DNA from: an uncultured Mycoplasmatota bacterium
GTDB lineage: Bacteria > Bacillota_I > Bacilli_A > RF39 > UBA660
Direction: 5' to 3'
Assembly: GCA_947646095.1 (NCBI GenBank)
Contig: CANSFI010000003.1
Location: forward strand, 5,011 to 69,010
Length of the DNA stretch: 64,000 nucleotides
This document shows positions 1,759 through 54,385 of the stretch, piece after piece. Within the stretch, counting starts at the first letter, position 1. Each line of letters begins with the position of its first letter. The position numbers and the translations under genes are program-made. A model generated the notes under the pieces. It was not told where the DNA came from, searched no databases, and saw only the letters and a program-made list of their open reading frames with translations.

Positions 1759-1859
1759 TGTTCAAAACATAATATCAATTAATTTGAAAAACTAATATAT
1801 TCTATTATTAAATAATTTTGAATAATTTATAGAAAATTAACAAAAATAGTACAAATATA

Positions 1860-1888
1860 TTGTTACTTTCATATTTATTCGGTAGAAT
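1860..1888 (+). promoter_or_regulatory. sigma-A-like promoter TTGTTA-N17-TAGAAT in front of repeat copy E
   Basis: Hexamers and 17-nt spacer read directly; AT-rich background makes chance matches common. Confidence 0.35.
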
Positions 1889-1930
1889 TATAGTAAAAAT
1901 TGATACAAATTAGTATTAATTCCTAATTTA

Positions 1931-2032
1931 GTGAAAAAGTTATAGATACCAACCACTATCACACTATTAGAAAATTTGTTTGAACTATTTAAACTTTTAG
2001 ATATAGAATCAATTCGATTGAATTATTTTTCT
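1931..2032 (+). repeat. copy E of the tRNA-Thr-trailer-like structured module (hairpin, CAC-A box, spacer, terminator hairpin + T-run)
   Basis: Aligns by eye to 21950-22030, 24857-24971 and 26651-26755: GTTATAG..CTATCAC hairpin 1939-1962, ..ATTAGAAAATTTGTTTGAACTATTTA.., hairpin ATCAAT/ATTGA and T-run ending at 2030. Confidence 0.6.
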
Positions 2033-2111
2033 GTTTTTATAAATTAATAAAGTTTAGTTTTAATTATTTTTAATTTATGGTAAAATATTTATAGAAAAAG
2101 GATCGATAAAT

Positions 2112-3116
2112 ATGGAATTTATAAATATTGAAGAAATAACTAAACAAAAGAAAATTAAATATGAAGAAATTTATGATAAAATATTAAAACAAACTTTAAG
2201 TTTATTAAATAAAATAATGAATAAAAAAAATATATATTTAGAAATATCAATGGATAAAATAGATTTTGATGAAATAGAATATATATTAAAAAGAGAAACT
2301 ATTTATTTTGAAAGTGTTTTAATGCTTATAGGTTCATTAAAAAAATGGAATAAAAAAGGTAAAACAAAGGAAACTAAAAAACAAAAAATAATCAAATATG
2401 CTAATTTATATAACAGTTCTTTAATAGAATTAAATCATTATATCAAAATAGAAACAGATATAATAGAATATGGATATAATATTATTGAAAAAAATAATAT
2501 AGATAAATTAATAAAACTATTTAAAGAAATGCTAAAATATAAGAATAAAGAATATAATAGTAATTCTTTTAAAGATTTGCTAGATTTCATAGATATAAGC
2601 TATCATTATTATCATAAAGAATTACAAAAACTATCTGATATTATATTTAATAATGAAGTATCAATAGATAACATAAATATTAAAGTAAATGATATAGAAA
2701 AAATAATTAGTTTAGAATATTTATATAATATTTTAACAGAAGAAAAAAATGATTATAAAAATTATGCTTATTATTATAAAGAATTTGAATTAAATAATGG
2801 TAAATCATATAAAGATTTATATAATAATTTAAAAGATAAATTAATAAAATTATTTAAAGAAATGCTAGATTATCTAAATATAGACTATGATAAAAATAGT
2901 AATGAGCTTGAATATTTCCAAGTATTAATGATGAATTATTATCCATATTATATAGAAACATTAGAATATTTAGATAAAATCATTTATAACCCCAATCAAA
3001 CTTATATAGAACTATTAAATAATTTAGAAAACATATATAATAAGTTTTCTAAAGATTTTAAAAGTAACAAACAACTATTAGAAGATTACCAAAAACTTGT
3101 TGAAATAAAAAAATAA
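2112..3116 (+). CDS. hypothetical K/N/Y-rich protein with an internal duplication
   Basis: ORF with RBS aaaaagga; DKLIKLFKEML..Y...Y..NS occurs twice (aa ~131 and ~242; nt ~2502 and ~2835). Confidence 0.45.
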   Translation: MEFINIEEITKQKKIKYEEIYDKILKQTLSLLNKIMNKKNIYLEISMDKIDFDEIEYILKRETIYFESVLMLIGSLKKWNKKGKTKETKKQKIIKYANLYNSSLIELNHYIKIETDIIEYGYNIIEKNNIDKLIKLFKEMLKYKNKEYNSNSFKDLLDFIDISYHYYHKELQKLSDIIFNNEVSIDNINIKVNDIEKIISLEYLYNILTEEKNDYKNYAYYYKEFELNNGKSYKDLYNNLKDKLIKLFKEMLDYLNIDYDKNSNELEYFQVLMMNYYPYYIETLEYLDKIIYNPNQTYIELLNNLENIYNKFSKDFKSNKQLLEDYQKLVEIKK

Positions 3117-3216
3117 AATGTAGAAATATGTATATTTATTAAATGATAAATATACTTTTTTTGACTTTTTTCTTAAAAATATTTAGATATAATAACCATA
3201 GAAAAGAGAGATCAAT

Positions 3217-4143
3217 ATGAAAAAAAACATTCTTATTTTATGCTTATTATTTTTAATACCAATTAAAGTAACTGCTATAGATAAAAAACCAACTATAGAA
3301 GGAAATATAGTATATGCTAATGGATATGCAATTACAATAAAAGAACGTAAAGATGGACTAGATGGAGCTACTATAAGCTGGAATAACGGTTCATTTAACG
3401 TAGACGATAGTGCCATTATATTTGGAGGAGGTAAACCAATAGAGTCTTATGTTGGAAGTAACATAACAATGACAGGAGGAACAGTTTCAACTATATATGG
3501 AGGTGGTAACGGAACTGTAAACACAAATAGTGATGTTGGTACTAGTTACATAACTATAGATGGAGGCGTAGTTACTAATGCTGTATATGGTGGTGGGCAA
3601 GGTTACTCTCATGTTGATAGAACAAGTATTTTAGTAAGTGGAAATGCTGAAATACCTTATTTAATAGGAGGCGGTATTGATGGTAGAACCGATGAAATAA
3701 TAATAGAAGCTATGGGAAGCAATATTAAAGTTATGCAAAGTTTTAATAGAGGAACTATTGGTAATGTTAGTGCTAAAATTAATGGTGCTAATATAAATTA
3801 TTTATATACACTAGGCGATAATACTGATACATCTGTAACAGGCAAAATAGATGATACTGCTAATATAAAATTAGATATTACCAGTGGTAAAATAAACAAT
3901 TTAAAATTAGGTATTAATGATACAGAAATACCTACAGATACTTCTAAAATTTACATTACATATATAGATAATACAATTGATAATATTGAAGAAAAATTTA
4001 CCAATTTAGATTTAATAACTCCTACTATAAATCCTATTTTAGATGATGTACCAAAAACAGGAATAACTAAAAAAATATCTTTTGAAACCATTATATTAAC
4101 TTTTATATTAGGCGTATTTTTAAAAATAAAACTAACTAGATAA
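3217..4143 (+). CDS. sortase-anchored surface protein with Gly-rich beta-helix-like repeats
   Basis: N-terminal signal peptide (MKKNILILCLLFLIPIKVTA); repeated (Y)GGG motifs; C-terminal VPKTG followed by a hydrophobic stretch and KIKLTR tail, which is a cell-wall sorting signal. Confidence 0.7.
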   Translation: MKKNILILCLLFLIPIKVTAIDKKPTIEGNIVYANGYAITIKERKDGLDGATISWNNGSFNVDDSAIIFGGGKPIESYVGSNITMTGGTVSTIYGGGNGTVNTNSDVGTSYITIDGGVVTNAVYGGGQGYSHVDRTSILVSGNAEIPYLIGGGIDGRTDEIIIEAMGSNIKVMQSFNRGTIGNVSAKINGANINYLYTLGDNTDTSVTGKIDDTANIKLDITSGKINNLKLGINDTEIPTDTSKIYITYIDNTIDNIEEKFTNLDLITPTINPILDDVPKTGITKKISFETIILTFILGVFLKIKLTR

Positions 4144-4144
4144 A

Positions 4145-4852
4145 ATGCATAAACGTTTAATAATTTTATTACTTTTATTAATAATAACAATGGTTTTAAA
4201 AAATATAAGTGATACTAAAATAGTTCATTATCCAACTAAAATAGAAGTATTAAATCCTGTAGTAAATAGTAGTGAACCTAATTTAATTAGGAAAATGGCT
4301 ACAGAAAATAATCAAATATATGGTTGGATTAATATAAATGATACTAAAATAGATTATCCTGTTATGTATAGTGGAGATGATTATTATTTAAATCATGATT
4401 TTTATCACAATAAATATGATTATGGTAGTTTATTTATTGATAAACATAATAGTATATATCCAAGAGATATCAATTTAATAATTCATGGTCACAATGCTTC
4501 TAATGGTACTATGTTTGGAAGTTTAAAAAAATATAAAGATTATAATTATTACTTAAATCATAAAACATTTACATTTGAAACAGAAGAACAAAAGTATGAA
4601 TATGAAATAATAGCAGTTTTTTTATCAAAAATTTATTATACTACTGATAATAATTTTAAATACTATAAATTCTATAATACTAATAGTGAAAATATTTATA
4701 ATGAATTTATTAAAAATGTAAAAAAGCTAAGTTTGTATGATACAAAAATAACACCTAAATTTCCAAACAATTTAATTACTTTATCTACTTGTGATGATAA
4801 TAATGAAAATGGAAGATTAGTAGTAATAGCTAGAGAAGTCACTACCATATAG
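4145..4852 (+). CDS. srtB: class B sortase
   Basis: N-terminal TM; GWININDTKIDYPVMY, IHGHN and TLSTC motifs, then a conserved Arg (GRLVVIAREV); starts 1 nt after the substrate gene. Confidence 0.8.
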   Translation: MHKRLIILLLLLIITMVLKNISDTKIVHYPTKIEVLNPVVNSSEPNLIRKMATENNQIYGWININDTKIDYPVMYSGDDYYLNHDFYHNKYDYGSLFIDKHNSIYPRDINLIIHGHNASNGTMFGSLKKYKDYNYYLNHKTFTFETEEQKYEYEIIAVFLSKIYYTTDNNFKYYKFYNTNSENIYNEFIKNVKKLSLYDTKITPKFPNNLITLSTCDDNNENGRLVVIAREVTTI

Positions 4853-4907
4853 TGATTTTTTTCTATACATTTAAATTATAAAATGTTATAATTAAAGAGG
4901 TGATATA

Positions 4908-6038
4908 ATGATATATTTAGATTATTCAGCAAATACTCCTATTAATAAGGAAGTTTTAGATAGTTTTTATAAAGTATCCTTAAATTATCCAGGTAATCCT
5001 AATTCTTTACATAGTTTAGGAGTTAAATCCAAACAATTAATTGATGCTTCAACTAAACAGATTTCAGATATTTTAAAAATTAAACCAGAAGAAATAATTT
5101 ATACAAGTGATTCTTCAGAAGCTAATAATTTAGCAATTAAAGGAATAGCATTTAAATATCAAAATAGAGGTAAACACATAATAACAACTCCATATGAACA
5201 TTCTTCAATATATGGACCTTTAAATTATTTACAAACATTAGGTTTTGAAGTAGATTTTGTACAAATGAATGAAGATGGTACTGTTAATATAGATAATTTA
5301 AAAAAACTACTTAGAAATGATACTATATTAGTAACAATTAACTCAGTTAATAGTGAAATAGGAATCAAGGAACCATTGGAAGAAATAGGAAAAATAATTA
5401 AAGAAAATTCAAAAGCTTTTTTTCATGCTGATATTACTCAAGCAGTTGGTAAAATTGAAATAGATTTAACTAACATTGATTTAGCTAGTTTTACAGCTCA
5501 TAAATTTTTTGGAATTAATGGGATTGGATGTTTAATTAAAAAAGATAAAATAATGCTAGAACCATTAATCCATGGAGGAAAAAGCACAACCATTTATAGA
5601 AGTGGAACTCCTTATTTAGGACTTATTGTTTCAATGTCTAAAGCTCTAAGAATAGCTTATGAAAATTTTGATCATAAATATAATCATGTACTAGAACTAA
5701 ATAAATATTTAAAAGAGCAATTAAAAAAATACAAAAATGTTCGCATTAATAGTATAGATACTTGCATACCACATATATTAAACTTTAGTGTCATTGGTGT
5801 TAAACCAGAAACTTTATTACATGCTTTGGAACAAGATGAAATCTATATTTCTACTAAGTCAGCATGTTCTAGTAGTAATTCTTTTTCTAAATCAGTATTA
5901 GAATTAACTAAATCAATGGAGCAAGCTAAAAGTAGTCTTCGAATAAGTCTTTCTTATATAACAACTAAAGAGGAATTAGATATATTTTTATCTTCTTTTG
6001 ATAAATATTACAAACAATTAGTTCATGAAAATAAATAA
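4908..6038 (+). CDS. cysteine desulfurase (class V aminotransferase, NifS/IscS-like)
   Basis: MIYLDYSANTP start, PLP-lysine context SFTAHKFFG, catalytic Cys context STKSACSS. Confidence 0.85.
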   Translation: MIYLDYSANTPINKEVLDSFYKVSLNYPGNPNSLHSLGVKSKQLIDASTKQISDILKIKPEEIIYTSDSSEANNLAIKGIAFKYQNRGKHIITTPYEHSSIYGPLNYLQTLGFEVDFVQMNEDGTVNIDNLKKLLRNDTILVTINSVNSEIGIKEPLEEIGKIIKENSKAFFHADITQAVGKIEIDLTNIDLASFTAHKFFGINGIGCLIKKDKIMLEPLIHGGKSTTIYRSGTPYLGLIVSMSKALRIAYENFDHKYNHVLELNKYLKEQLKKYKNVRINSIDTCIPHILNFSVIGVKPETLLHALEQDEIYISTKSACSSSNSFSKSVLELTKSMEQAKSSLRISLSYITTKEELDIFLSSFDKYYKQLVHENK

Positions 6039-21881: not shown

Positions 21882-21955
21882 GCCATCTTAGTTAAGTGGT
21901 ATAACAAAGCCATGGTAAGGCTTAATTATAAGTTCGATTCTTATAGATGGCACCA
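21882..21955 (+). tRNA. tRNA-Thr (anticodon GGT)
   Basis: Hand-folded cloverleaf: acceptor GCCATCT/AGATGGC, D arm GTTA-AGTGGTA-TAAC, anticodon arm AAGCC-ATGGTAA-GGCTT, T arm ATAAG-TTCGATT-CTTAT, encoded ACCA end. Confidence 0.85.
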
Positions 21956-22030
21956 TTGGGAAATCTGTTCTAACTATTTAGAACTTTATATACAAAAAGT
22001 ATCAATTTCAAAAGAAGTTGATATTTTTTT
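21950..22030 (+). repeat. copy A of the trailer module (the genuine tRNA-Thr 3' trailer and terminator)
   Basis: GCACCA-TTGGGAAATCTGTTCTAACTATTTAGAAC..-AAAAAGTATCAA/TTGATATTTTTTT; reference sequence for copies B, C1, C2 and E. Confidence 0.7.
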
Positions 22031-22055
22031 GTGATTAGAGAAAGGACAGATAAAA

Positions 22056-22400
22056 ATGGTAAGTATAGTTAGTAAAGAATTACACTTTGATGAAGAACTA
22101 AAAAAGAAAATAGAATTTATATGCGATCTTTGTAATACAAAACCTACTATAATAAATGGATATATTAAAAACATAAAAAGAACAAATCTCTCATATATCG
22201 AACCTCATAGAGTTATTATTAAAGGTATTACTTTTCTAGTATTTAATTATTCTAAAACTATTTATATTGGAAATTTAAGAAATAGTATTGAAATTAAAGA
22301 TTTAGAAAGTTTTATTAAATCATTAGATAAATGTATTAAAAGTAAATCAACTTCTCTTAAAATGCCTTTAAATAGGCAAAAAATGGTAATTATGTCTTGA
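22056..22400 (+). CDS. hypothetical protein (first ~15 aa shared with the 25001 ORF)
   Basis: RBS aaaggacag; MVSIVSKELHFDEELKK parallels MVTITKKELEIEELKE at 25001. Confidence 0.4.
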   Translation: MVSIVSKELHFDEELKKKIEFICDLCNTKPTIINGYIKNIKRTNLSYIEPHRVIIKGITFLVFNYSKTIYIGNLRNSIEIKDLESFIKSLDKCIKSKSTSLKMPLNRQKMVIMS

Positions 22401-22424
22401 CTTTAAGATTTAAATATCTATAAT
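22397..22424 (+). promoter_or_regulatory. sigma-A-like promoter TTGACT-N16-TATAAT
   Basis: Near-consensus hexamers; followed by a leader with hairpin CAAAGACA/TGTCTTTG (22519-22549) and the recombinase 5' fragment. Confidence 0.45.
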
Positions 22425-22593
22425 AGGTAACCAAGAAACAAGTTTTATGTTTTTGGTGGTTAATATGAAACGAACTTTGAATTATATTAATACAACTTAT
22501 TTAGATTTTAAGAGGTTTCAAAGACATAAAAATATTTAATGTGTCTTTGTCACCTATTTTTAGGTTTCAAAGATAAAAAGGAGGATTAAAAAT

Positions 22594-22644
22594 ATGAATG
22601 AAGAAAAGAAAATTGCAGGTTTGTATATTCGTGTGCCGTTGTAA
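22594..22644 (+). pseudogene. 5' fragment (16 codons) of a serine recombinase gene
   Basis: aaggagg RBS, MNEEKKIAGLYIRVPL*; resembles the ..aiYxRVS.. N-terminus but breaks at the catalytic-Ser position. Confidence 0.5.
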
Positions 22645-22649
22645 TACAT

Positions 22650-23163
22650 AGGCAGATACATTGTCTTCTTTTTCTTCAAGTTCTTGTTTTGTGATTGTAA
22701 AGCCATATTTACCAAAGCTTGTGCCAATATCTAATTTTCCATTAGGTAGATTTTCGTTGATTAGTTCTCCAATTTTTAGAATAAATTTAATCTTGTAAAA
22801 ATCTTCTTCTCCATTTTCTGACTTTTCTCCAATAATAATTTTATCAACCATAGTATTAAATACTTCTTCATTAAATTTTGTCAGGCCTTTATATTGTTTT
22901 AGAGTATTTGCTATTTTACCAATTTGTTCTAACTTTTGTTTTCTAGTGAGTTCTATATTTTCAGTATCTTTTAGTTGTTGTTCATACTCTTTAATCTTGT
23001 TGGAAATCTCTTGATTTTTCTGATTCAATATCTCTTTTGAAATATAGCCATCAAGTTGTAAGTCAATCAAATTAGATAATTTATTTTCAAGTTTAGATAT
23101 TTCATCTTGTATTTTTTTATGATTAAGATTATCTTGTTTTCCATTGATGACTTCATAAATGAC
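22650..23163 (-). pseudogene. C-terminal fragment of a large serine recombinase, no N-terminal catalytic domain
   Basis: Frame open from 23163 (VIYEVINGKQDNLNHKKIQDEISKLENKLSNLIDLQLDGYISKE...VDKIIIGEKSENGEEDFYKIKFILKIG); coiled-coil ..L.DLY.DG.Is.e and terminal ..i.I.f pattern; a TAA lies immediately upstream. Confidence 0.6.
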
Positions 23164-23304
23164 TTATACGATGAAGATATACTTGATGATAATGAGATTA
23201 ATATAATACAAAATAATAAAGATAATGAAAAAGATGATTTTGAGAGATAAAATGATAGTGGTATAGTTGCATAAAATTACTTTTTATGGTAGTATATACA
23301 CCAA

Positions 23305-23374
23305 TCCAAAAAGGGGGATATTTGAATATGGCAACTAAATCCAAAAAGGGGGATATTTGAATATGGCAACTAAA
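23305..23374 (+). repeat. perfect 35-bp tandem duplication covering the RBS and start codon of the next gene
   Basis: TCCAAAAAGGGGGATATTTGAATATGGCAACTAAA occurs at 23305-23339 and again at 23340-23374. Confidence 0.95.
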
Positions 23375-24040
23375 TTAAAAGAAATGAAATGGAAATTACA
23401 TAAGAAAAGATATGATGAATTGTTTAACTATGGAGTAAAACATGGTCTAATTGGTGCTTATGATAAGAAATTAATAGAAAATTTAAGCCATATTTATTAT
23501 GGTGAACTTCCAGCATCCATATTATTATTAAATGGTAAATTAAGTAATGGTCATTGCTATGATAGAGGAACATTAGTGATACTAGGATTTGGTGATGATG
23601 ATTTTCAAGTTGTTGATGCAGATATTGATAGTTTAAGATTAAATCCACAATATATTGATGAATATAGGTCTGGGAATAGAAGTGAACATTTTGCTAATCA
23701 TTGTTTTGCAGAAAGAACATTAAAAGATGGTACAAAATTAGTCTATGGTACTTCTGTCGGATTAGTATTCGAAAAAAGTTTATATTATAAACTTGAAAAT
23801 CCTAAAATTACAAAGATTAATGATAAAGAAACAACTTTAAAATTTTTATATTATGATTTTCAACAAGATTCAGATATAGAAAGAGATAAATATGCCCTAC
23901 CTTTGATTTTACCTAATATAGAAAATTGTTTAGTGCCAACACAACCTTTTTATTTAGAACAATTAAAACAAGAAATTGATTATGATGATATATATAAAGA
24001 AATACATGCGGATATGAAAGCAAAAAGATTTTTGAGTTAA
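23363..24040 (+). CDS. papain/transglutaminase-fold-like protein, paralog 1
   Basis: ATG 23363 with gggggat RBS; SNGHCYDRG...DDDF...ANHCFAERTLKDGTKLVYGTS aligns with the Cys/His/Asp positions of the next gene (the Asp position is Gly here). Confidence 0.5.
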   Translation: MATKLKEMKWKLHKKRYDELFNYGVKHGLIGAYDKKLIENLSHIYYGELPASILLLNGKLSNGHCYDRGTLVILGFGDDDFQVVDADIDSLRLNPQYIDEYRSGNRSEHFANHCFAERTLKDGTKLVYGTSVGLVFEKSLYYKLENPKITKINDKETTLKFLYYDFQQDSDIERDKYALPLILPNIENCLVPTQPFYLEQLKQEIDYDDIYKEIHADMKAKRFLS

Positions 24041-24055
24041 TAAGGGGGAAATTAA

Positions 24056-24760
24056 ATGTTTGGAATTAATGAAATATTAGATAAAGTTATTTCTAAAAAA
24101 GAATTAACAGAAGAAGAAAAATTTAAAATATTACGATCTAAAATAATTGATACAAAAGTTGTAGAATATTTAATGAGTAAATTGAATAATTTACATATTG
24201 AGGTATTAGGTAAGTATGAAGGTTCTTTGTTTGAATTAATGCCAGTAGGAAAACTTGAAGGATGGTGTTGGCAAACAACAGAATCGGCAATAGTATTTTT
24301 AAATGATGATGATTATATTGAAAGAGGAAACCTAAGGTTTGATGAAAGAACACCAAAATATTATCATTCATGGATATGTTTTAAGTTTGATGGAACAGAA
24401 TATGTTTTAGATCCTTGTTTAAGTTTTTTATGCAAAAAGAGTGATTATTCAAAAATATTTGAAATCAATGTAAAAGGAAAAGTAAGTGCTAAAACAGTAA
24501 GAGAAGAACTAATTAGACAAGTTACTGTACCTAAAGAGGAAGATAGTTCAAAAGCTCACAAAGCATTTCAATCATTTATGAAAAGTTTTATGGGAGAATC
24601 TTGTGATAGTTATGTGGAAAGTAAAAAAGAAGAGGTTACAGTTCATGGACCAGAAGATGTAAATACTCCATTATACAGAAATGGTGCAGGTTATAAAACA
24701 GAAATAGAAAATGGAAAAGTTAAAAAATTAACAGTTCATTATTATTACACAGATTGTTAG
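24056..24760 (+). CDS. papain/transglutaminase-fold-like protein, paralog 2 (Cys-His-Asp intact)
   Basis: LEGWCWQTTESAIVFL...YYHSWICFKFDGTEYVLDPCL is a classic C...H.W......D.. spacing. Confidence 0.55.
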   Translation: MFGINEILDKVISKKELTEEEKFKILRSKIIDTKVVEYLMSKLNNLHIEVLGKYEGSLFELMPVGKLEGWCWQTTESAIVFLNDDDYIERGNLRFDERTPKYYHSWICFKFDGTEYVLDPCLSFLCKKSDYSKIFEINVKGKVSAKTVREELIRQVTVPKEEDSSKAHKAFQSFMKSFMGESCDSYVESKKEEVTVHGPEDVNTPLYRNGAGYKTEIENGKVKKLTVHYYYTDC

Positions 24761-24856
24761 TATTAAAAAATTAGAAAAATGTGTAAAATTATTTTTTAGA
24801 ATGGTTTATAATTTAGATATGAAGTCAGTACTATATGTACTAGATTACTTAAATTT

Positions 24857-24971
24857 GCGAAAAGTTGTAGATAACTATCACTATCGCACCAGTAAGCAAT
24901 CTGTCCAAACTTTTATAGTTTAGGGCTTAAATATATAAGTATCAATTTCTAAAAGAAGTTGGTTCTTTTTT
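24857..24971 (+). repeat. copy B of the trailer module
   Basis: GCGAAAAGTTGTAGATAACTATCACTATCGCACCA-GTAAGCAATCTGTCCAAAC...GTATCAATTTCTAAAAGAAGTTGGTTCTTTTTT; the match to copy A continues through the RBS into the first codons of the next ORF. Confidence 0.65.
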
Positions 24972-25000
24972 GATGTTTAGGAAAGAAAGGACAGGTTTAA

Positions 25001-25291
25001 ATGGTAACTATTACAAAGAAAGAATTAGAAATTGAAGAACTAAAAGAAGAAGATCATTCATTAAAAAATACATTGGAATTTTGGAAAGACAAGTTTTTAC
25101 AAGTTATGTCTTTAATCAAAGATAAGTTGTTTGGGAAAGAAAAAGAACGAGAAAGATCTTTTGATGTATTCAAAGACTTATATAAAAAAGGAATTATTAA
25201 AGAGGATACATTTAATGAATTAAAAGATAAATACAATTTTAGTAAAGAACATGATAGCAAGGAAAAAGATGATTTTGAGATAGAACTCTAA
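25001..25291 (+). CDS. hypothetical charged coiled-coil protein
   Basis: RBS aaaggacag; 96 aa; its last ~20 nt (GAAAAAGATGATTTTGAGA) recur at 23228-23246. Confidence 0.4.
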   Translation: MVTITKKELEIEELKEEDHSLKNTLEFWKDKFLQVMSLIKDKLFGKEKERERSFDVFKDLYKKGIIKEDTFNELKDKYNFSKEHDSKEKDDFEIEL

Positions 25292-25306
25292 TCATCCTTT
25301 TGTGCG

Positions 25307-26182
25307 TCAATTATTTGGTAATTCAAGTTTTAATGTTTTAGGACTAGAAATTGTTTTTAATTGTTTTTCTTTATCAATTAAATTTAAACAATTATCGATT
25401 CTTTCAACTAATCCAAACAAAGGTAATTCTCCTTTGATACATTTTACCATTTCAATTATTTTTGCTTCTGCTTGTTTTACGGATTCCATATTGAAATCAG
25501 AATTATCAAAACTAATAACTTTTTCAGATAAATTCTTGGCAATAGCATTTTGTGTAGAAGTAGCAAAATCCGAAACGATAATATTCCCACTATTTTGACT
25601 ATTAAGTGCTGGCAATAATAATGTGTTTGCAGTACTTAATAATGTAGGATTACTAGTTAAATCGATTTTAATGCCTTTTCTAGAATAGAAATTAGCACGG
25701 ATGCCCTTTTTTCTACTAACATCAAATCTATATGTTCCATTAATCTTTCCATTGCTTTTATGGGTATTAATTGCACCAGCACCCATTTCCAAACTATCAT
25801 CTGGATTTAATGCTGCTTCAAATACTACTGAAGCATTATTTTGCTTATTTTTTTTATCATATTTTTTTGCTATTCTTACTAATTTTATTCCTGTACTCAA
25901 ATCTCTTATTATTTCAATATCGTTGAATTTTTCTGTTAAAATGTTATCTTTTAATGAAATTGTAAGATAATCATATTTGTATTTTTCTCTCCAATTTCCA
26001 GTTAGTTGATCAAGAGTAATTGATATATCAAAGTCATTTGATAAAACATTAAATGTAGTATCATAGGAAATCCTAGTTGGATGTTGCAAAGTTTGTTTTT
26101 TTCCTACTTTAGCAGATTTAGAAAATTCAATAATACCATTATTGTTAAACGAAAAACGTCTTTTTGCTTTATGTGAATGCAT
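25307..26182 (-). CDS. hypothetical protein, probably the downstream part of a frameshifted ~400-aa gene
   Basis: This frame stays open ~60 nt upstream of the listed ATG (..NINFECEFGRIDWFGMHSHK) back to the homopolymer run at 26226-26231. Confidence 0.45.
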   Translation of the reverse strand: MHSHKAKRRFSFNNNGIIEFSKSAKVGKKQTLQHPTRISYDTTFNVLSNDFDISITLDQLTGNWREKYKYDYLTISLKDNILTEKFNDIEIIRDLSTGIKLVRIAKKYDKKNKQNNASVVFEAALNPDDSLEMGAGAINTHKSNGKINGTYRFDVSRKKGIRANFYSRKGIKIDLTSNPTLLSTANTLLLPALNSQNSGNIIVSDFATSTQNAIAKNLSEKVISFDNSDFNMESVKQAEAKIIEMVKCIKGELPLFGLVERIDNCLNLIDKEKQLKTISSPKTLKLELPNN

Positions 26183-26220
26183 ACCAAACCAATCAATTCT
26201 ACCAAATTCACATTCAAAAT

Positions 26221-26517
26221 TTATGTTTTTTCTCCTGTTAATGTATTATCTCCTACTAGAGTTTCTTTAGCAAGAGGTATTCCAATTCTATCCCCAGAAT
26301 AGTAAGCATTTGCTAATCTATATCTAGGCTCATATTTTCTTTCCATGTCTCTAACATCAGCTTCACCAATTTCACAATGCAATGGTAGGCAATGTGCATC
26401 CAATAATCGCTCATACCAGCAGGCATTCCAATTTTTGACATATTCTTCTGCCTTTTGCATTTCTTCCAGTACTTTTTCAACTGCTATCATTTGAGTTTCG
26501 TTATCTAAAGTTTCCAT
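26221..26517 (-). CDS. hypothetical Cys/His-containing protein, probably the upstream part of the same frameshifted gene
   Basis: RBS aagggggata; visibly less AT-rich than its neighbours; CWYERLLDAHCLPLHC; ends ..GEKT* inside GGAGAAAAAACATAA. Confidence 0.45.
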   Translation of the reverse strand: METLDNETQMIAVEKVLEEMQKAEEYVKNWNACWYERLLDAHCLPLHCEIGEADVRDMERKYEPRYRLANAYYSGDRIGIPLAKETLVGDNTLTGEKT

Positions 26518-26579
26518 AGTTATCCCCCTTAACTATTAATTATTATATCATAGCTTTTAATAAAATCTTATAAAAAATA

Positions 26580-26608
26580 TTCAACTTTTTTTAAAAATGT
26601 GCTATATT
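26580..26608 (+). promoter_or_regulatory. promoter-like TTCAAC-N17-(TGc)TATATT in front of copy C1
   Basis: Extended -10 TG at the correct offset; 17-nt spacer. Confidence 0.35.
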
Positions 26609-26650
26609 TTCATTAGTGATTGATTCCTATATCAATCGTTGTGGTAAAAA

Positions 26651-26755
26651 GTTGTAGATAACTACAACAACAGCACCAGTAGGAAATACATTCTAACTTT
26701 TGAATTAGAAGTTTAAAGTAAAAATCGACTTTCTAAAATAGATTGTTGATTTTTT
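26651..26755 (+). repeat. copy C1 of the trailer module
   Basis: Perfect hairpin GTTGTAG-ataa-CTACAAC, then AACAGCACCA-GTAGGAAATACATTCTAAC.., hairpin AAAATCGAC/GTTGATTTT and T-run. Confidence 0.65.
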
Positions 26756-26764
26756 AATTCTTAA

Positions 26765-26855
26765 GAGTTATAAACAGATATAACTCACTTACTATTGAGC
26801 AATCAATTCTAATTTTTGTTAAATTTAAACATATAGTATCAACTTCAAAATAAAT
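26765..26855 (+). repeat. copy C2 of the trailer module (terminator degraded)
   Basis: Hairpin GAGTTAT-aaacagat-ATAACTC, then ACTTACTATTGAGCAATCAATTCTAATTTTTG...AGTATCAACTTCAAAA. Confidence 0.5.
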
Positions 26856-26868
26856 TAATTATGATAAT

Positions 26869-27033
26869 ATGAAAAAAAGGTTTTGAGTTAATAGGGAGAA
26901 AAATGAAATATTAGAAAAAGTTATTTCTAAAAAAGAATTAGCAGAAGAAGAAAAATTTAAAATATTATGCTCTAAAATAATTGATACAAAGGTTATAGAA
27001 TACTTAATGAGGAAATTAAGTAATTTACATATC
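26869..27033 (+). pseudogene. orphan fragment copying the junction of the two papain-fold genes (3' end of paralog 1 and 5' end of paralog 2)
   Basis: Aligns to 24014-24200 at high identity by eye, with an ~18-nt deletion that removes the start codon; similarity ends near 27033. Confidence 0.7.
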
Positions 27034-27137
27034 AAGATTTATAATCGTATATTATTTTACAACTTTTTTGTCTATATAGCTATTACTAACACCAAATAAT
27101 AATTCTTATAATAATCTAAGTTCTTTTCTATAAATAA

Positions 27138-53221: not shown

Positions 53222-54385
<1,164 letters not shown>

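Follow-up and report, generated by a model that had tools for sequence, protein, structure and literature searches.

The closest described counterparts of the locus reported here are the ssrA islands of Dehalococcoides, mobilizable elements that carry the serine recombinases DsiB and DsiA and occupy the 3′ end of the transfer-messenger RNA (tmRNA) gene (McMurdie et al. 2011, PMC3146451). Dehalococcoides units that lack a recombinase are thought to be mobilized in cis (PMC3146451). Our locus lies in a 64,000-nucleotide (nt) stretch of contig CANSFI010000003.1, called the window here, from the draft genome (1.38 Mb, 24% G+C, 46 contigs) of an uncultured Mycoplasmatota bacterium; coordinates are window positions. 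We conclude that positions 21956 to 26678 very probably consist of two tandem, decayed integrative mobilizable elements (IMEs), A (2.9 kb) and B (1.8 kb), inserted site-specifically within the GCACCA end of the tRNA-Thr(GGT) gene, and that older scars of the same family follow at 26679 to 27033.

As in the Dehalococcoides islands, a serine recombinase gene stands beside attL in this family, and the 3′ end of an essential small-RNA gene is entered without being destroyed. Both systems form tandem arrays that are separated by copies of the target 3′ end and include recombinase-less units, such as A and B. The Dehalococcoides islands, however, use one target (ssrA), a 20-bp repeat, a T-loop insertion point and a CcrB-like enzyme together with a second small serine recombinase, whereas here a single large serine recombinase (LSR) family is found at no fewer than 11 tRNA species and the tmRNA, with a 5- to 6-bp core at the CCA end and a MobV relaxase. 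Intact relatives of A and B encode a single LSR and a 91-amino-acid (aa) open reading frame (ORF) that is not a recombinase; a paired second serine recombinase of the CcrA or DsiA kind is absent from them.

The staphylococcal cassette chromosome (SCC) elements are cassettes driven by LSRs (CcrAB or CcrC) at the 3′ end of rlmH (orfX). They build composite tandem arrays with repeated attachment cores, in which non-autonomous cassettes are moved by recombinases acting in trans. The 3′ end of a conserved gene, tandem cores and non-autonomous units are shared with the array described here, but the SCC target is protein coding, the Ccr enzymes are mostly paired and there is no relaxase.

Among IMEs in general, tRNA 3′ ends have been assigned to tyrosine integrases and sites within genes to serine recombinases, and no directionality factor is noted for serine IMEs (PMC5704250). 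The target at a tRNA 3′ end, the element-borne tRNA end that keeps the gene intact, the tandem accretion and the decay into non-autonomous units are all features that our locus has in common with the islands, IMEs and integrative and conjugative elements (ICEs) of tyrosine integrases, including the accretion of cis-mobilizable elements (CIMEs) and ICEs; the enzyme class differs, as does the repeat, which is 6 bp here and a longer tRNA fragment there. One LSR, one relaxase or mobilization protein, cargo and a very short crossover also characterize Tn4451/Tn4453 (TnpX) and other serine IMEs of the Firmicutes. Tn4451, however, has low target specificity and other serine IMEs lie inside protein genes (PMC5704250), whereas the present family uses the CCA ends of tRNA and tmRNA genes and supplies a terminator. 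In the open-access literature that we searched, the present LSR family was not found described, and the tmRNA of Dehalococcoides was the one serine-recombinase precedent.

Results

An insertion in the tRNA-Thr gene is polymorphic among strains

We compared the locus with 10 contigs from other samples of the species, retrieved by exact look-up of the neighboring SpoIIM-like protein. The segment from 21956 to 26678 (4,723 bp) proved to be strain specific, with eight conspecific assemblies empty and three occupied. In the empty assemblies (L095-L102), tRNA-Thr (...GATGGCACCA) is joined directly to GTAGGAAATAC, which is window position 26679, and the sequence after the tRNA reads GTAGGAAATACATTC..., matching the window from there onward; the flanks are 99.3 to 100% identical to those of the window. 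The occupied assemblies are this genome and two others (L103 and L104), both of which carry the left end of element A, where their contigs stop. Breakpoints computed against the empty contigs fell at 21983, a position blurred by the similarity of the arms, and at 26673. GCACCA is the only sequence common to both insertion joints, and the insertion thus has a defined attL, a defined attR and a natural empty site.

An earlier note, made from the letters of the window alone, had proposed that recombination acted repeatedly at the 3′ end of tRNA-Thr and so built up accessory DNA, and had predicted a conserved tRNA with variable content up to about 27.1 kb in other strains. The strain polymorphism and the joints support the general proposal, and the module marks those joints. 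The content does vary from 21956 to 26678; 26679 to 27033, which represents older scars, is present in all strains, the empty ones included. Since the trailer of the tRNA in the empty strains is an old left arm, the trailer and terminator there are themselves element derived.

A repeated module marks the joints

GCACCA, the final 6 nt of tRNA-Thr (21950 to 21955), forms the attL core, the left half of the attachment site. It recurs at 24886 to 24891 and at 26673 to 26678, and a degenerate version, TTACTA, lies further on. Each copy of the core is followed by a similar stretch of about 80 nt that contains a short hairpin and then an AT-rich terminator hairpin with a T-run (folds of the three modules, −21.7, −18.4 and −16.1 kcal/mol; z = −4.0, −2.3 and −2.3). 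The second and third core copies are preceded by the motif AAAAGTTGTAGATAAC, which is unlike the T-arm of the tRNA. The copies that flank the breakpoint are only 76 to 79% identical, and the copies overall are 65 to 79% identical.

Everything that the earlier note had seen in the letters was recovered. Repeat families, alignment and folds placed copies of the module at 21950, 24886 and 26673 and a degenerate fourth at 26789. The ORFs at 22056 and 25001 share the ribosome-binding site (RBS) aaaggacag and their first ~15 codons (56 nt at 75%), the orphan tail GAAAAAGATGATTTTGAGA stands at 23228 to 23246 and again at 25265 to 25283, and the gene junction at 24022 to 24198 recurs at 26873 to 27032 (131 nt at 92%; 44 nt at 73%). 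Recombinase pieces do lie in opposite orientations, MNEEKKIAGLYIRV on the plus strand from 22594 and a fragment of ~190 codons on the minus strand at 22635 to 23160, and a scan of the window found no intact integrase. A papain fold, which the note had suggested for the genes at 23357 and 24056, was not borne out by any match in Pfam, PHROGs or NCBIfam. Its reading of the mechanism needed more revision. The crossover point is the 6-bp core GCACCA and not the ~100-nt module, which is the left arm of the element, on the right of the crossover. The internal oddities (the 25001 ORF and the orphan tail), for which cassette exchange at the module had been among the suggestions, are instead deletions at short microhomologies within the elements. 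That islands form at tRNA genes, cited in the note as established knowledge, applies to the location at a tRNA 3′ end but not to the enzyme class, which here is LSR and not tyrosine integrase.

A profile built from the module and run over the 1.38-Mb genome found 15 copies at E ≤ 0.005, so its recurrence is not due to chance. Six of the 15 start in the last nucleotides of a tRNA (Thr-GGT, Leu-TAG, Leu-CAA, Gly-GCC, Gly-TCC and Arg-CCT). With tRNA genes called by ARAGORN and RNA families searched in Rfam at E ≤ 1, the candidates riboswitch, T-box and tRNA-like RNA were rejected: Rfam matched tRNA alone, and ARAGORN saw no cryptic tRNA in the module copies.

The module belongs to elements with a large serine recombinase

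Elsewhere in the same genome, at tRNA-Gly(GCC), at tRNA-Gly(TCC) and on contig C34, we found an ORF of about 90 aa, an LSR of 630 to 680 aa and a Mob_Pre (MobV) relaxase. LSRs of this family have Resolvase, Recombinase and zinc-ribbon domains; the genome has nine LSR genes, four of them of this type. Intact matches to the 5′ stub of element A's own LSR were among the finds; the earlier note had proposed a genome-wide search for an intact recombinase that matches the fragments. Downstream of the tRNA-Arg(CCT) module only an LSR truncated by the contig end was found; the tRNA-Leu(TAG) module has only the small ORF, and the tRNA-Leu(CAA) module has a Mob_Pre relaxase without the small ORF.

A search with an alignment of four LSRs against species-representative genomes gave at least 544 relatives. 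The locus counts that follow refer to the best 80 of these, all of which come from assemblies of uncultured gut Bacilli or "Tenericutes." The LSR of 56 loci is preceded by a same-strand tRNA or tmRNA gene whose end is 519 to 773 nt away, and the small ORF lies between the two; most of the remaining 24 lack upstream sequence or lie 1 to 5 kb from a tRNA. The adjoining genes are Gly-TCC, Gly-GCC, Gly-CCC, Cys-GCA, Thr-GGT, Thr-CGT, Thr-TGT, Leu-CAA, Leu-TAG, Leu-GAG, Arg-CCG and the tmRNA. The left arm starts directly after CCA at every attL site examined (54/54). Right arms, of which 29 copies were listed, were placed by a P-arm profile 4.6 to 6.5 kb downstream of the LSR in 22 loci, which gives elements of about 5 to 7 kb.

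Intact relatives have a uniform order: left arm, ORF of ~91 aa, LSR of ~630 aa with its own promoter, MobV relaxase, cargo and right arm. Their right arms carry AAAAGTTGTAGATAAC and end in a copy of the tRNA end, GCACCA or GCTCCA, that matches the discriminator class of the target. In one intact element of 6.8 kb (L041), the ORFs of at least 60 aa encode the small ORF, the LSR, the MobV relaxase, an alpha/beta hydrolase, a NUDIX protein and two unknowns, and the LSR is the sole recombinase among the six ORFs scanned. No tyrosine recombinase was found among the scanned ORFs of this element or in 21956 to 27130 of the window. Units A and B fall short of this plan. A keeps 14 codons of its LSR (22594 to 22634), the last of them incomplete, and B has none, both keep only C-terminal remnants of the relaxase, and neither is autonomous.

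Two other loci of the genome show the element in different states. Contig C34 (7,559 bp) is a circular permutation of one element, with the relaxase split over the contig ends, no exact terminal overlap and a joined right-arm/GCTCCA/left-arm site at ~3340 to 3530; it could represent either an excised circle or a tandem repeat. On contig C15 (G000 C15:3025-11596, minus strand), an intact-looking element at tRNA-Gly(GCC) has a small ORF, a 683-aa LSR and a 460-aa MobV relaxase. Its right arm ends in GCTCCA, and next to it comes a second element, whose left arm differs and which encodes a 128-aa relative of the small ORF (TNLQVIEP) and a 596-aa LSR. The sequence after the right arm was considered as the native tRNA-Gly trailer, and this was ruled out, as it is the left arm of a further LSR element with its small ORF. 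This tandem array looks live.

A probable crossover at the CCA end and a target class that tracks the recombinase tree

LSR attachment sites are characterized by a crossover core of just 2 bp, without long identity between attP and attB; here attL and attR have 6 bp in common. At the tmRNA sites, target and right arm have different bases at position 71, each of which remains with its own side, and the sequences differ again right after A76, which places the crossover within tRNA positions 72 to 76. The core is the center of a 55-bp unit, AAAAGTT...GCACCA...AACTTTT. AAGTT lies 24 nt before GCACCA in right arms and 20 nt before it in the tRNA, where it belongs to the T-arm. In LSR sites, attP is about 50 bp long with imperfect dyad symmetry, and its outer motif is farther from the center than that of attB; the resemblance is suggestive only.

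On a tree of the LSRs with 54 leaves, the identity of the target tRNA changes 34 times. Identical LSRs occur at Gly-TCC and Cys-GCA, and near-identical ones at the tmRNA, Thr and Leu genes. The discriminator class (GCACCA versus GCTCCA) changes only 4 times, against a mean of 17.8 in shuffles, none of which (0/500) was as low. As a pattern in sequences, this fits, without proving it, a model in which the discriminator is part of the crossover dinucleotide and the enzyme recognizes what all tRNA 3′ halves share.

The right arms (e.g., 26600 to 26678 and 24815 to 24891) have a conserved extended −10 element (TGCTAnAAT) about 70 nt before the core that is directed across the attachment site. In one right-arm subfamily, the transcript could fold into an acceptor/T-arm-like minihelix ending in ACCA (GCGA...TCGC, with GTGA variants); such a minihelix was rejected as a general feature, as the fold is not conserved in the other subfamilies.

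Element A was broken by a nested element and a deletion

The features of the locus are collected in Table 1. The left arm of element A now serves as trailer and terminator of tRNA-Thr. The small ORF behind it was predicted by AlphaFold2 with a pLDDT (predicted local distance difference test) score of 94, had no PDB fold match at E ≤ 0.001 and matched nothing in Pfam, PHROGs or NCBIfam; it is a candidate accessory or directionality factor. The LSR promoter, TTGACT-16-TATAAT, scored 11/12 matches in the promoter scan. What remains of the gene is the ATG at 22594, 13 codons (MNEEKKIAGLYIR) and the GT of a Val codon. Comparison with the intact C34 gene and with loci L046, L048, L009 and L026 placed the break within the catalytic R-V-S motif, after the GT of its Val codon.

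The minus-strand recombinase fragment that follows is 82 to 91% identical in amino acid sequence to the C terminus of opposite-strand recombinase genes in L046, L048, L009, L026 and L042, where these genes lie between the tRNA and the host recombinase. It had to be distinguished from an inverted C terminus of the same gene, which was ruled out, as its homology is to the different LSR of a nested element. The full-length version in L046 is a 593-aa LSR with Resolvase, Recombinase and Zn_ribbon_recom domains. The junction CGT GT|GCCGTTGTAATACAT is found at the same host codon in the window and in four loci (L046, L048, L009 and L026), whose recombinases belong to different subclades at different tRNAs, a pattern that suggests site-specific homing into the gene of the host recombinase. 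The invader combines an LSR of its own with a fixed, conserved host codon; the window keeps only the 3′ ~190 codons of that LSR. In L046, the nested insert runs from 1766 to 5990 (~4.2 kb), and the host LSR frame resumes after the right end ...TTCCGTA(A/G)GA GT.

Several further features of nested elements were seen. The one in L046 also carries an NTP_transf_6 nucleotidyltransferase and has the core GT, and its right end restores an open frame (..RYMCSVRVSTEDQ; 666-aa ORF), so that the host recombinase may be expressible under the invader's control. At the right junction in L026 (L026:5890-6030), the host LSR frame has an extra insertion of ~80 nt between AGTTAGTAC and TGAAGATCAAGC. A nested element of this kind also lies on G000 contig C7 at ~53537 to 53947.

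A deletion at the 12-nt microhomology ATTGATGACTTC, where the two homologies overlap, joins the nested fragment to the tail of element A's relaxase. This tail is 74 to 86% identical in amino acid sequence to relaxase C termini of L039, L038, L032 and others, and the same deletion junction is present in a contig from another sample (L106). That contig is otherwise 98% identical and lacks the 35-bp duplication ahead of the cargo, which must therefore be very recent. The two cargo genes had no match in Pfam, PHROGs or NCBIfam; a homolog of the first, 45% identical, is cargo of the element in L034. The right arm of A is 95 to 97% identical to those of the intact elements L046, L045, L041, L039 and L038.

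Element B is an internal deletion product beside older scars

The left arm of element B is 79 to 86% identical to left arms of L002, L009, L008, L022, L028 and others. Behind it, residues 4 to 96 of the 25001 ORF are 84 to 86% identical to relaxase C termini of L075 and L072. Homology to the small ORF runs to 25035-25054 and homology to the relaxase begins at 25019, and the crossover lies within GAAATTGAAGAACTAAAAGAAGAA (25019 to 25054), the ~35 nt in which both source homologies overlap. Judged by these homologies, the ORF is the product of an in-frame deletion that took out the recombinase, the remainder of the small ORF and most of the relaxase gene. The cargo of B had no match in Pfam, PHROGs or NCBIfam, and an exact look-up of its 291-aa protein found no copy on record. 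The right arm of B is 80 to 82% identical to those of L075 and L072 and ends in the core GCACCA at 26673 to 26678, the attR of the strain-specific insertion.

Table 1. Features of the tRNA-Thr locus, in window coordinates
Feature	Position	Strand	Basis
tRNA-Thr(GGT), CCA encoded	21882..21955	+	ARAGORN; Rfam tRNA, 66 bits
Left arm (P′) of A: hairpin GTTCTAA-CTA-TTTAGAAC and terminator hairpin with T-run	21956..22036	+	fold −21.7 kcal/mol, z = −4.0
Small conserved ORF of A, 114 aa (91 aa in most relatives)	22056..22400	+	45-member alignment, 75% mean column identity
Promoter, leader, RBS and start of A's own LSR	22397..22634	+	promoter scan; intact relatives
Nested second element, left end GCCGTTGTAATACAT..., with last ~170-190 codons of a different LSR	22635..23157	−	homology to relatives
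Orphan tail: last ~35 codons of A MobV relaxase (...NEKDDFER, stop)	23146..23250	+	homology to relaxase C termini
Perfect 35-bp tandem duplication, RBS and start of first cargo gene	23303..23372	+	repeat at 100%
Cargo of A: two adjacent genes, 225 and 234 aa, Cys/His/Asp motifs	23363..24760	+	ORFs
Right arm (P) of A, motif AAAAGTTGTAGATAAC, ends in core GCACCA (24886-24891)	24801..24891	+	homology
Left arm (P′) of B, hairpin and terminator	24892..24976	+	fold −18.4 kcal/mol
Chimeric ORF: B small-ORF start fused in frame to last ~90 codons of MobV relaxase	25001..25291	+	homology
Cargo of B: gene of ~390 codons, broken near 26182-26221 into two ORFs (98 and 291 aa)	25307..26517	−	ORFs
Right arm (P) of B: extended −10 (TGCTATATT), hairpin, AAAAGTTGTAGATAAC	26573..26678	+	homology
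Older scar: left-arm module, tRNA trailer in empty strains	26679..26762	+	follows tRNA-Thr directly in L095-L102
Older scar: degenerate attachment-like site, core TTACTA 26789-26794	26763..26817	+	repeats
Older scar: further degenerate arm	26795..26868	+	repeats
Older scar: fragment of cargo-gene junction	26869..27033	+	repeats

Related sites near the locus and in other genomes

Two further degenerate attachment-like sites, with the cores CACACTA and GCACTA and no adjoining tRNA, lie at 1927 to 2014 of the window and at G000 C3:2540-2745, 2.3 kb before the window starts. They flank a gene block of ~4.4 kb, and behind the upstream site of the pair lies a small-ORF pseudogene that starts with ATA. 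The block is probably another old array that lost its tRNA.

A metagenome scan for the joined right-arm/left-arm site of element A returned only one unrelated island at tRNA-Thr on a human-gut contig. This island (L105:3428-8231) is a different one of 4.7 kb at tRNA-Thr(GGT) without an LSR; it ends ...actatcGCACCA, followed by a left-arm-like hairpin, and lacks the AAAAGTTGTAGATAAC motif.

The only other genome of the genus, G001, was considered as an empty site and rejected: its left flank is not followed by tRNA-Thr, which adjoins tRNA-Arg(CCT) 100 kb away. There, tRNA-Arg(CCT) and tRNA-Thr(GGT) are divergent neighbors (G001:C3:258403-258484, L094). In the genome studied here they are apart, on contigs C33 and C3, each followed by an LSR element, and the genes that come after the SpoIIM-like gene in G001 adjoin tRNA-Arg on C33. 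Gene order in the two genomes points to a rearrangement with end points at element-occupied tRNA loci.

Discussion

We propose that an LSR of this family would recombine the element site, composed of right arm, core and left arm, with the 3′ end of a tRNA gene. The crossover dinucleotide would lie between tRNA positions 72 and 76 and would most likely include the discriminator base, and the tRNA would stay intact while gaining an element-borne terminator. At an occupied site, the trailer that would serve as the right half-target is an old left arm, so new elements would stack beside residents and give rise to arrays; left-arm types are diverse, and an occupied site may still look vacant to an enzyme whose arm type differs. 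Element A would have decayed in two steps, invasion of its LSR gene at the R-V-S codons by an element with a second kind of LSR and then a deletion at the 12-nt microhomology that removed most of the invader together with the remaining LSR sequence and the bulk of the relaxase. Element B would have lost everything from the start of the small ORF to the end of the relaxase through the overlap of ~35 nt, leaving the chimeric 25001 ORF. The nested insertion junction and both deletion junctions can be read directly in the sequence; we infer the order of events. Neither A nor B would be self-mobile, and their movement would need intact LSRs of the family elsewhere in the genome. Mobilization of A and B as a block by such enzymes in trans is plausible, because they lack a recombinase yet keep intact bounding cores and are polymorphic among near-identical strains.

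A mosaic could also arise without any site-specific recombinase, if the module were a functional RNA or regulatory unit (a trailer-terminator or a small-ORF leader) that spread among tRNA loci by duplication, homologous exchange or gene conversion. The left arms indeed form a hairpin followed by an intrinsic terminator and serve to terminate the tRNA, the right arms have a conserved extended −10 promoter, and the internal deletions of A and B are themselves homology or microhomology events. The breakpoint between occupied and empty strains, however, falls in the 6-bp core and not in the ~100-nt module, whose flanking copies are diverged, and an LSR accompanies the unit at a fixed distance in 56 of 80 loci, which involve many tRNAs and the tmRNA. 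The module also matched no Rfam family, and the pairing in the right arms is not conserved between subfamilies, so we consider this account improbable. Still harder to credit is a classical tRNA island array built by a tyrosine integrase in trans, with the serine recombinase genes as cargo or in some other role, which we think has hardly any chance of being right. Although textbooks give tRNA 3′ ends as the target of tyrosine integrases and the genome has about eight tyrosine recombinase genes, none lies in the region or among the scanned ORFs of the intact L041 element. The repeat of the tRNA end is just 6 bp, whereas islands of tyrosine integrases duplicate a longer fragment (~15 bp or more); the right arm before GCACCA does not match the T-arm; and across the family the LSR adjoins attL at a constant distance.

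It is also very unlikely that the tandem arrangement is an assembly artifact from contigs misjoined at the repeated modules. The genome is a 46-contig draft, conspecific contigs L103, L104 and L106 end at or near an attachment core, and the A-B junction was not found elsewhere. Yet module copies 65 to 79% identical are too diverged for assembly collapse, attL was confirmed in two other samples, the interior of A with its deletion junction and the right arm up to the core was confirmed in another sample, and the right side from 26673 was confirmed in eight assemblies.

Some points weigh against the explanation that we favor, two tandem elements inserted by LSRs of this family. No recombination was observed, and we infer it from comparison of sequences. 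Canonical LSRs do not recombine attP with attL or attR, and the route to tandem arrays outlined above is hypothetical. The A-B junction gave no match in the metagenome scan and is known from this assembly alone. G001, the sole same-genus genome, has a different arrangement at the locus and does not supply an ancestral state, and the right edge of the oldest scars can be placed only within 27033 to ~27130.

The choice of targets suggests a broader idea, which we put forward tentatively and rate at somewhat below an even chance. LSRs of the family may read the architecture common to the 3′ halves of tRNAs and the tmRNA (T-arm, acceptor strand and CCA) and not a particular tRNA. If the crossover dinucleotide includes the discriminator, one enzyme could enter any gene of its class (A73 or U73), and recombinase-less arrays such as A plus B could be mobile as a block through enzymes acting in trans.

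The locus itself is wreckage, yet it amounts to a natural experiment, in which strains of one species with and without the insert locate the joint of an LSR element within a tRNA CCA end. The family is large, with its hundreds of relatives in gut Bacilli genomes, and within one discriminator class it appears to treat many tRNA genes as equivalent targets. In these genomes, mobile elements supply the terminators of many tRNA genes. Programs that look for islands on the assumption of a tyrosine integrase at tRNA genes would be affected, and the family may also provide serine integrases for which nearly every bacterial genome has natural landing sites. The finding bears on gene flow in uncultured gut bacteria with reduced genomes.

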